Below the pieces are notes generated by a model. It worked only from the letters and a program-made list of their open reading frames with translations, had not been told where the DNA came from and ran no database searches. This document shows, in pieces, positions 46,862 to 52,472 of a stretch of 64,000 nucleotides of DNA. The stretch's first letter is position 1. The number at the start of each line of letters is the position of its first letter. The translations under genes and the position numbers were made by a program. Source of the stretch: Planctomycetota bacterium (GTDB lineage Bacteria; Planctomycetota; SZUA-567; H5-PLA8); contig JBBRPR010000004.1 in NCBI GenBank assembly GCA_038227875.1, positions 32,001-96,000 of the forward strand. Reading direction: 5' to 3'.

Positions 46862-50629
<3,768 letters not shown>

Positions 50630-50706: not shown

Positions 50707-50883
50707 GCTGAAAATAGTAAAAAGTTCCACACTCCTGTTGTGTAATCGTAAGTACTTGATAATTATGATATTTATGATTTTATTCTTAGAGGTGACGGCA
50801 TCGTGGCGGGGTGATTGGCTAATGAAATCGCCGCGCCATTCCCTGGCGCGGCGAGCATAAAGAGTGTCGAAAAGAAGAATGCG

Positions 50884-51294
50884 TTAGCGGGAATTCTTGG
50901 CCTTGAAGACGGTCTTGGCAACGAGGTGACCATCGACTTCGGCGACCGTCAGGTAGACATTGTCGCCAGCCTTCAGTTCCGGAAGATCTTTGACGTCTTT
51001 GACGACGACATCGACTTCTTTGTCGTTGAGTCCCATCTTCTTGAACGCGATGGATAGCTTGAGCACGATCGAATCGGTGCCGGCTTTCACGACGGAACCG
51101 TTCATGGTGCCGCTGTAGCCTTTCAATTCCGTGGGCAAGGTGGCGGGCGTTGCGGCCACCGCAGGTGCGGCGTCTTTGTCGTCGCCGAACGCCTGGCTCT
51201 GCCCCATCGTCAAGACCGAGCGCGAACCGTTGAAATCCACGCTGACACTGCCGGCCAGCACGCTCACTGCCATGATCATTGCAGCACGCTTCAT
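50884..51294 (-). CDS. Putative nested in-frame secreted protein (136 aa) from an internal start in the FecR gene
   Basis: AAGGAG-N8-ATG, then MKRAAMIMAVSVLAG...QAFG|DDKD. Confidence 0.5.
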   Translation of the reverse strand: MKRAAMIMAVSVLAGSVSVDFNGSRSVLTMGQSQAFGDDKDAAPAVAATPATLPTELKGYSGTMNGSVVKAGTDSIVLKLSIAFKKMGLNDKEVDVVVKDVKDLPELKAGDNVYLTVAEVDGHLVAKTVFKAKNSR

Positions 51295-51942
51295 CGTCGT
51301 TTCTCCTTGAGTGTTTTGTCCTTTGGGTTGAAGTTCAACGGAGAACTGCGTGCCCAGGACAGTGATCAGACCGACTTCCGTACTCACACGAAATGCGTGT
51401 TCCGCATCTGGTGCCTTTTGAATCTGAAAGCTCGCCTTGCCTGATTTCAGTTCCACGCTGCGGGAATGCAGAATGCTGGAACTCGACGATGCCAGATCCA
51501 TCATCGAGCCGTCGGGAAAGCGGATCGTGGCCGCGTTGCCGGCGTCGCAGGCCACGACTGAACTGTCGCTGATCGAGCCATCCCGCTTCTCATTCACCAG
51601 CGCCGAGCCGGACACCAGCTCAAATCCGCCGTGCGGTTTCACGGCCATGTTCGCCAGATAGAAGTAGGTCGCGCCGGCGCAGAAAAGCAGCACCGCCGCC
51701 GCCGACCAGGCCAGATACCGCCGCGCCGGCAACGGCGTGACGCGGGGCGGAGCAGAGCGGGGGAGTTCCGGCGCCGCTGCGCTGACTTTCAGCGCTTCGA
51801 CCAGCGTCGCCGTGCCCACGAACTCGTCGTAGAGGCGTTCGCGGTTGGCCGGTTCGGCCAGCAGGCGTTCGAGTTCCTTCAACTCGTCGGCGGTGATGGA
51901 TTCGTCGCGCCAGGCCAGCAGCAGTTCGTCGAGGGATTTCAT
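50884..51942 (-). CDS. FecR-domain anti-sigma factor
   Basis: N-terminal helical anti-sigma domain, TM, F.DGS...L...S, VLGTQFSV and V.VLAGSV.V. ATGA overlap with the sigma gene. Confidence 0.85.
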   Translation of the reverse strand: MKSLDELLLAWRDESITADELKELERLLAEPANRERLYDEFVGTATLVEALKVSAAAPELPRSAPPRVTPLPARRYLAWSAAAVLLFCAGATYFYLANMAVKPHGGFELVSGSALVNEKRDGSISDSSVVACDAGNAATIRFPDGSMMDLASSSSSILHSRSVELKSGKASFQIQKAPDAEHAFRVSTEVGLITVLGTQFSVELQPKGQNTQGETTMKRAAMIMAVSVLAGSVSVDFNGSRSVLTMGQSQAFGDDKDAAPAVAATPATLPTELKGYSGTMNGSVVKAGTDSIVLKLSIAFKKMGLNDKEVDVVVKDVKDLPELKAGDNVYLTVAEVDGHLVAKTVFKAKNSR

Positions 51943-52472
51943 ACGGTTCGATTCTCCCCCTGGATCCGGCGGGCCACACACTCGCGCAGGCCTTTGCGCA
52001 CGCGGCTGAGCAGCATCAGCACGGCTCCGTACGTCTGGCCCGACTGGCCGGCGATGACCGTCAACTGCACGCCCCGCTCGTAAACTTCCACCAGAAGCTG
52101 GCGCGATTTTTCGGGAAGGGCGCGCACGCATTCCAGCAGCGCGTTGCGGCGCGCCGTCCAGACGTTGTGCGAACCGGCCTGTTCATCAAACGCCTGCTCA
52201 ACGAGATCCAGCATGGAACTGTCGGGGATCACGCGGCTGGAGCGTTTCTCGCGCCAGTAATGGAGCACGAGATTGCGCGCCGTACCGCGGCACCAGGCGG
52301 CGAGGTCCTCGATCGCCACGCCGGTGCGGGAAGCTTCGGATAGTCGCAGCCAGACTTCCTGGAGAATGTCTTCGGCGGCATCCGGATCGCGGATCAATCC
52401 GGAGATGAAGGCCATCAGCACGTGGCGTTGAGCCAGGAACTGTGCGCCGAGGTTTTCAAGCTTTTCGGTCAT
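51939..52472 (-). CDS. ECF sigma-70 factor, Rhodopirellula/Verrucomicrobium type
   Basis: LMAFI..LIRD..AAEDILQEV, AWCRG.ARN and LSRVRK.LRECV. Confidence 0.9.
   Translation of the reverse strand: MTEKLENLGAQFLAQRHVLMAFISGLIRDPDAAEDILQEVWLRLSEASRTGVAIEDLAAWCRGTARNLVLHYWREKRSSRVIPDSSMLDLVEQAFDEQAGSHNVWTARRNALLECVRALPEKSRQLLVEVYERGVQLTVIAGQSGQTYGAVLMLLSRVRKGLRECVARRIQGENRTV

Follow-up and report, generated by a model that had tools for sequence, protein, structure and literature searches.

A probable internal start site conserved within planctomycete FecR-type anti-sigma genes may yield a second, self-exporting product

A FecR-type anti-sigma gene from a Planctomycetota bacterium (GTDB lineage SZUA-567; H5-PLA8) probably encodes two products, the shorter of which would be initiated inside the FecR domain and exported. 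The gene (P0002; 50884-51942, minus strand; 352 amino acids, with the ATG at 51942 and the stop codon at 50886-50884) lies in a 64,000-nucleotide stretch of assembly GCA_038227875.1 (contig JBBRPR010000004.1, positions 32,001 to 96,000, forward strand), here called the window, whose numbering is used throughout. Comparison of homologous sequences shows selection on a Shine-Dalgarno (SD) sequence at synonymous sites, on a start codon, for weakly structured mRNA, and for an N terminus that is first basic and then hydrophobic. We read the gene as encoding two products because these four features, in A-rich mRNA, match the real start of an exported protein. Initiation at the loop ATG as such seems likely on this evidence. 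A first-pass annotation of the same DNA had offered the two-product interpretation from this gene alone, and the homologues support it; initiation, export, and a decoy or feedback role for the short product are what we infer from them.

RESULTS

An internal start element in the FecR-domain loop

The element sits in a loop of residues 207 to 221 (51280-51324, minus strand) that is expanded, A-rich, and modeled by AlphaFold with low predicted local distance difference test (pLDDT) scores. From the Thr of a Gly-Thr pair to the conserved Gly of the V.V..G.V.V strand there are 34 residues here, compared with 19 in short-loop homologues. The minus-strand DNA of the loop reads ACT CAA GGA GAA ACG ACG ATG AAG CGT. 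It holds an SD sequence, AAGGAG (51303-51308, minus strand), 8 nucleotides (nt) 5' of an internal ATG (Met217; 51292-51294, minus strand), counting the spacer from GGAG to ATG, and this ATG is in the same frame as the 352-amino-acid open reading frame (ORF). The nested in-frame ORF that follows (P0001; 50884-51294, minus strand, stop codon included) would encode 136 amino acids. Its N terminus, MKRAAMIMAVSVLAGSVSV (51238-51294, minus strand), resembles a signal peptide; in the long protein, these residues make up the FecR domain's final beta hairpin. The first-pass annotation had described the expanded A-rich loop, placed the SD at 51303-51308 and the ATG at 51294, and counted 19 residues from the Gly-Thr pair to the methionine; all of its coordinates are correct.

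An SD core, defined as GGAG, GAGG, or AGGA ending 4 to 12 nt before an ATG, precedes 4.3% of 41,901 internal ATGs in the long ORFs of this genome. It also precedes 30% of the 5'-most ATGs (a crude proxy for starts) of 5,595 long ORFs, where the spacer from GGAG peaks at 5 to 9 nt. Because 4.3% of internal ATGs carry such a motif, the single copy in the window could be chance, and the comparison with homologues settles the matter. A 91-nt fold around the window's own site is unremarkable (z 0.28). In the minimum-energy structure of 51303-51345 (minus strand), the GGAGAA of the SD pairs with a UUCUCC in the Phe-Ser codons of the preceding strand, a pairing no better than in shuffled sequences (z 0.28); it could couple internal initiation to upstream translation.

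Conservation of the SD sequence, start codon, and open mRNA

Homologues were sampled as relatives of the query within Planctomycetota. A word-indexed search returned 8 relatives of the anti-sigma protein, 7 of them full-length, and a HMMER search of cluster representatives returned 418 proteins at E values up to 0.001. A profile search matched 134 of 401 Planctomycetota genomes, a class-level search turned up 13 places in 62 genomes, and a related-locus search gave one metagenome locus (the short form L003) and two genome loci, one of which duplicates G007. The 96 regions analyzed comprise 88 listed places whose match reached at least profile position 245, thus covering the loop, and 8 class-level places; about 60 listed matches ending earlier and 95 unlisted matches were left out, and L003 to L007 were omitted as duplicates or other forms. 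Together with the gene's own locus (L001) and L002, this makes 98 loci with a FecR-domain match, 94 of which align through the conserved Gly of the hairpin while 4 end earlier. A loop methionine is present in 51 of these 94, a fraction that is not a prevalence because the loci were picked with a profile built from relatives of the query. The 51 Met-bearing homologues have a median pairwise domain identity of 32%.

An SD core precedes the loop methionine in 49 of the 51 (the exceptions are L054 and L077), whereas the remaining internal ATGs of these ORFs have one in 47 of 438 cases (Fisher P = 8e-38). In the alignment, positions -14 to -8 have the consensus AAGGAGA, with G at -9 in 49/49 and G at -12 in 46/49, and the spacer from GGAG to the ATG is 8 nt in 30/49 and 5 to 9 nt in 45/49. 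Codon choice is strongly skewed: Gly at codon -4 is written GGA in 34 of 35 cases versus 478 of 3,911 (12%) elsewhere in the ORFs (P = 8e-30), and Lys at codon -5 is AAA in 21 of 23 versus 462 of 1,774 (26%) elsewhere (P = 1e-10). When the seven residues before the methionine were resampled with synonymous codons, 25.0 +/- 2.75 of the 51 sequences carried an SD core (maximum 34 in 2,000 draws), indicating that the amino acids account for roughly half of the SD signal and codon choice for the remainder. This synonymous bias is not attributable to constraints on the long protein. The comparison that the first-pass annotation had asked for, of a (K/Q)G(E/G)xxM pattern kept among homologues and of the SD at synonymous positions, came out strongly. 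Reducing the sample to one sequence per 50%-identity cluster leaves the SD in 18 of 20 and GGA in 8 of 8. In four loops that lack the methionine (L013, L044, L056, and L059), an SD is followed, with the spacing unchanged, by an in-frame GTG.

The mRNA around the site is also unusually open. A 50-nt window from -25 to +25 folds more weakly than windows elsewhere in the gene (mean z +1.70, t test P = 5e-21, n = 51) and falls within its own gene's weakest tenth in 75% of the 51; relative to the rest of the gene it is 10.6 points lower in GC and 10.6 points higher in A. The closest relative with available DNA (L002, 59% identity) reads AAA GGA GGA ACG GAC ATG. At the protein level, relatives at 25 to 35% identity in a 56-protein alignment repeat a KGExxMK-like loop motif before the strand LAVAV..G.V.V, and 81 of 143 cluster representatives with both anchors have a loop methionine, 52 of these fitting [GE][EDG]xxM. 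Two database proteins, P0015 (139 amino acids) and P0020 (138 amino acids), were assigned starts by gene callers at exactly the loop methionine.

These comparisons make it very improbable that the element in the window gene is a chance occurrence or a relic with no present function. A 352-amino-acid protein with several methionines could have one SD-led ATG at the genomic rate given above. However, 49 of the 51 Met-bearing homologues have the element at the equivalent place in the loop, with strong synonymous bias, in proteins down to 23 to 49% identity, and L002 keeps it. We also considered and rejected a gene-fusion relic: canonical short-loop proteins also include the strand past the methionine in their FecR domain, and synonymous bias would not survive in a relic at 32% identity.

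The SD-like sequence might instead be a pause or regulatory site for elongating ribosomes, the methionine and the hydrophobic strand then being protein-level features of a FecR subfamily. Consistent with this, roughly half of the sequences would have an SD core from the amino acid motif alone, the residues past the methionine fold as FecR strands in the AlphaFold model, and the module and the hydrophobic strand may simply be inherited together. It leaves unexplained, however, the fixed 5- to 9-nt spacing from GGAG to a start codon in 45/49 (ATG, with GTG in 4 further cases), the weak local mRNA structure, the basic residues past the methionine, and the gene callers' choice of the loop methionine as a start. 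SD-driven ribosome pausing is itself disputed, and we consider such a site improbable here.

The N terminus of the putative internal product

In this copy the internal product begins with MKR followed by 16 uncharged residues. Among the 51 homologues, 48 have an n-region with a net charge of +1 or more, and 47 have a run of 10 or more uncharged residues (range, 10 to 24) past the methionine. Over the 15 residues surrounding the conserved Gly, mean Kyte-Doolittle hydropathy is 1.87 in homologues with the methionine (n = 51) versus 0.64 in those without it (n = 43; P = 3e-12), and this segment contains on average 1.1 versus 2.9 charged residues. The residue preceding this Gly is mostly A, V, S, or T in the first group and E, R, or H in the second. 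Loops without the module are mostly short (19 to 25 residues from Thr to Gly). In the close family, P0007 has Thr in place of the methionine and also Glu in the strand (VSVEAGSV versus VSVLAGSV). Counted raw, module against hydrophobicity gives 48 (module, hydrophobic), 5, 3, and 38, figures that are not corrected for kinship.

The first-pass annotation had read this segment as a Sec signal cleaved at QAFG|DD. The basic n-region and the hydrophobic region of that reading are conserved, as just described, while the proposed cleavage is unlikely: the site lies about 22 residues beyond the hydrophobic stretch, directly after a modeled strand (residues 249 to 252). The small residues that follow the hydrophobic region in this copy are A-G-S and S-V-S, and the window copy has no clear AXA-type site after the stretch.

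Two groups of homologues have recognizable endings. The hydrophobic stretch of L020, L021, L022, and L037 ends in M/V/I/A-V-A-C about 20 residues past the internal methionine, which we take to resemble a lipoprotein lipobox; if this lipobox-like motif holds, the short product of these loci would be a lipoprotein. In a second group (L025, L027, L031, L033, L045, L050, L057, L066, L067, L072, and L076), a 21- to 22-residue N terminus ends in A-W-G, S-W-G, or A-G-A before a polar residue, an ending whose sequence resembles a signal peptidase I site. In several members of this second group, the hydrophobic stretch is interrupted midway by K, R, or H.

Internal initiation without release into the periplasm is a further alternative. 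The short product would then stay in the cytoplasm, or sit in the membrane with an uncleaved signal anchor, as a truncated regulator without its sigma-binding part. All of the start-site evidence holds for this reading too, and the stretch is short, beta-branched, and at times broken by K, R, or H, with no clear AXA-type site in this copy. Speaking for export are the basic n-region in 48/51 and the uncharged stretch in 47/51, the subgroup with A-W-G or A-G-A 21 to 22 residues past the methionine, and the four proteins with the lipobox-like x-V-A-C. In addition, the parent domain acts outside the cytoplasm in known FecR proteins, according to the available text of PMC12036975. We regard a product that is made and not released into the periplasm as unlikely.

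A number of observations weigh against the two-product, exported reading. Besides the selected sample and the share of the SD signal that the amino acids supply, the assembly yielded no 16S rRNA 3' end, and hence the anti-SD was not read directly. Of the 7 close full-length homologues, four have M at the methionine position, two V, and one T, and P0007, with its Thr, lacks a start at the loop. The contigs of P0015 and P0020 are only 524 and 965 nt long, and these two may be truncated genes; we rejected them as proof of stand-alone genes for this reason. The link between module and hydrophobicity is uncorrected for ancestry, the tree being poorly resolved: an independent-pairs test on the 94 domains, with the trait columns removed, found one pair on supported branches and had no power. 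In the window copy the hydrophobic stretch is short, with much Val, Ser, and Thr, and several homologues have K, R, or H inside it. Finally, AlphaFold models the strands confidently (pLDDT 94 for residues 221 to 230 and 93 for 231 to 240), so their hydrophobicity could be structural.

Architecture of the full-length anti-sigma protein

The AlphaFold model of the 352-amino-acid protein has a mean pLDDT of 86.6. Residues 1 to 51 (51790-51942, minus strand) form a presumably cytoplasmic and sigma-binding helical region (helices 4-12, 18-28, and 31-51; pLDDT 94 to 97) that is strongly conserved in alignment A1; a Pfam scan found no family matching it. A transmembrane helix is predicted at residues 76 to 99 (51646-51717, minus strand) from the model and the hydrophobic sequence. 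Directly before it stands a twin arginine, Arg74-Arg75 (A-R-R-Y-L-A-W; 51718-51723, minus strand), reminiscent of the twin-arginine translocation (Tat)-dependent insertion described for Escherichia coli FecR in the available text of PMC12036975. The twin arginine is not a family feature, being present in only 2 of the 9 rows of alignment A1.

The FecR domain spans residues 131 to 233 (51244-51552, minus strand; PF04773, 48.8 bits against a cutoff of 24, E = 9.6e-13, profile positions 4 to 96 of 97), which places Met217 to Val233 inside it. The modeled part is beta-rich from about residue 108, and its best Foldseek matches are the anti-sigma factor BDI_1681 (4m0h and 4m0n) and PupR (6ovk_R). 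Gly197-Thr198 (codons at 51349-51354, minus strand) aligns with the autocleavage site of FecR and FoxR and is on that basis a candidate site; the pair is kept in most aligned homologues, and Thr198 lies 19 residues before Met217. Strand 199-206 follows, then the low-confidence loop 207-221 and strands 222-230, 232-237, 240-245, and 249-252. The peptide past the methionine thus still forms FecR strands (222-230 and 232-237), as the first-pass annotation had proposed from the residue pattern.

After strand 249-252 a disordered linker leads to a small OB-like beta barrel at residues 277 to 347 (50902-51114, minus strand; pLDDT 91 to 96), which bears out the small beta domain suspected behind the signal-like segment. 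Foldseek matches the barrel to CusF (2qcp, template-modeling score 0.73 by target), to the C-terminal domain of SilB, and to CspA. A Pfam scan found no family for it and no FecR_C (PF16344) match at E up to 0.1, and a sequence search of the PDB gave one weak, irrelevant match. The missing FecR_C match, the OB-like C terminus, and a PKD-domain protein as neighbor mark this as a FecR-domain anti-sigma factor and not a canonical iron-signaling FecR.

Spread and variants of the module

Within the sample, the module was found in 19 of 28 family codes and in 32 genera, with a strongly lineage-dependent distribution (0/15 in f15, 7/7 in f3, and 14/16 in f80). In this genome it is present in only 1 of 13 FecR-domain genes; the hairpins of the other 12 are short and charged. 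Downstream of the methionine, the homologues are diverse. A Pfam scan of the internal products, covering 48 of the 51 (L054, L077, and L097 were omitted), placed 36 in no family and the rest in CarboxypepD_reg, EF-hand, DUF3108, and FecR_C. A shared C-terminal cargo was rejected as an explanation, since 36/48 match no Pfam family and the others differ from one another.

Two kinds of variant were seen. The short forms P0011, P0017, and L003:389-1033 (224 to 229 amino acids) lack the whole FecR domain and with it the internal start; their N-terminal and membrane helices are joined via a short linker straight to the OB-like barrel. P0009, P0010, P0160, and P0161 (alignment A2) have lost the Gly-Thr pair, with DEAK, PDAT, FDAK, and QDAT in its place, and keep the loop motif with M or V.

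Gene order and flanking features

The anti-sigma gene adjoins and is co-oriented with a gene for an extracytoplasmic function (ECF) sigma factor (51939-52472, minus strand; 177 amino acids) whose TGA stop codon overlaps the anti-sigma start (ATGA); L002/L004 share this arrangement. The sigma protein matches Pfam Sigma70_r2 at 32.3 bits (cutoff 24), and its top NCBIfam match is TIGR02989, a Rhodopirellula/Verrucomicrobium family, at 115.5 bits, under the cutoff of 124.55. A terminator-like hairpin of 11 pairs, 9 of them G-C, with a T-rich tail lies 3' of the anti-sigma gene (50828-50854, minus strand); it is weak evidence alone, as the region holds 4 such sites against 2.9 expected. A scan for sigma-70-type promoters found none upstream of the internal SD and a sole match near the 3' end of the gene (50921-50893); ECF-type promoters were outside its scope.

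The next downstream gene (46862-50629, minus strand), which comes after the hairpin and an AT-rich spacer, encodes a 1,255-amino-acid protein with a signal-peptide-like N terminus, an HELGH (HExxH-type) motif, PKD and He_PIG domains, and a Gly-Thr(-Ser) repeat (GTGTGTGTS...) of well over 100 residues. This gene may be a target of the sigma factor. At the DNA level, contigs from four sequencing runs contain the anti-sigma stretch unchanged, and a 153-nt contig from a second sample of the same study spans 51223-51375 with zero differences. None of the sequencing runs listed as containing the stretch is an RNA run.

DISCUSSION

We propose the following scheme. Translation from the ATG at 51942 would produce the full-length membrane protein, with cytoplasmic sigma-binding helices, one transmembrane helix, and a periplasmic part made of the FecR domain with its Gly-Thr pair and the OB-like barrel. 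From the AAGGAG and the ATG of Met217, 8 nt apart in the open, A-rich FecR loop, ribosomes would also initiate internally and make a 136-amino-acid product in the same frame. The residues of the last FecR hairpin would then become the N terminus of the short product, probably acting as a Sec-type export signal or signal anchor, and the C-terminal part would reach the periplasm alone, independent of the membrane-bound half. Such a product would nearly coincide with the Gly-Thr autocleavage fragment, beginning 19 residues later; it would amount to a second route to that fragment, with a targeting signal of its own and a level set by the two starts. We favor a role in tuning signaling, with the short product serving as a free pool of sensor or C-terminal fragment that might, for instance, be a decoy for either the input or the site-1 protease; a decoy or re-arming function is what we would infer from this arrangement.

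The long protein has much in common with the FecR, FoxR, and PupR regulators of E. coli and Pseudomonas: an ECF sigma neighbor, a cytoplasmic N terminus, a single transmembrane helix, a PF04773 domain, and a Gly-Thr pair. E. coli FecR undergoes autocleavage at Gly-181|Thr-182, after which the C-terminal fragment remains bound and crosses via Tat, as described in the available text of PMC12036975. In contrast to these regulators, the hairpin past the Gly-Thr strand is about 15 residues longer here and encodes an SD and a start, a comparison made with the E. coli and Pseudomonas proteins and not their gene DNA. The strand after the expanded loop is without its charges, no FecR_C or STN domain was found and the C terminus is an OB-like barrel, and no TonB-dependent transducer is seen beside the gene, whose downstream neighbor is the PKD-domain protein.

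Sec and lipoprotein signal peptides likewise have a basic n-region, an uncharged stretch (10 to 24 residues here), and, as in the subgroups above, small residues or Cys afterwards. The segment described here differs in lying inside a larger ORF and in doubling as a structural hairpin. It is also shorter and more beta-branched than typical signal peptides.

IF2, ClpB, and ArcB are examples of genes with in-frame internal starts. SsaQ, Spa33, and CheA also have such starts, which give rise to N-terminally shortened proteoforms (reviewed in PMC13515050, as far as its available text goes). As in SctQ/SsaQ/Spa33 and CheA-L/CheA-S, one ORF would here give two proteins, with an SD-led internal start producing a separate C-terminal part. 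In the examples given in the available text of that review, the short forms remain cytoplasmic or lose a targeting leader, whereas here the internal start would create an export-like N terminus out of beta strands; the host gene, moreover, encodes an anti-sigma factor. In the available text of this 2026 review of bacterial N-terminal proteoforms, the term "anti-sigma" has 0 occurrences, and the available text of the ECF classification paper (PMC7826278) makes no mention of an internal start in anti-sigma genes. A full-text literature search, whose coverage left out most subscription journals, likewise found no internal start described in FecR-type or other anti-sigma genes, in agreement, within that coverage, with the statement in the first-pass annotation that no description of this design was known.

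For genome annotation, the finding is a warning that such genes probably encode two proteins and that gene callers pick the internal start when the upstream part is absent. The SD can be removed without altering the long protein, which makes the hypothesis directly testable by silent SD mutations.

FecR-type regulators are a main bacterial route by which outside signals reach ECF sigma factors, and they are numerous in Planctomycetota. To our knowledge, their C-terminal fragment has so far been known from autocleavage only. If our reading is true, the conserved internal start would be a second, independently adjustable source of this fragment, and P0009, P0010, P0160, and P0161, without a Gly-Thr pair, would depend on it alone for any free C-terminal fragment. 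More tentatively, and with considerable doubt, in many Planctomycetota the anti-sigma gene may also yield a free, self-exporting copy of the autocleavage fragment that sets the threshold of the switch or resets it, either through competition for the input or the site-1 protease or by capping the membrane stub again, one stretch of peptide serving as both hairpin and export signal. If true, this would be a clear case of one peptide stretch selected twice, as a structural strand in the long form and as a targeting signal in the short one.

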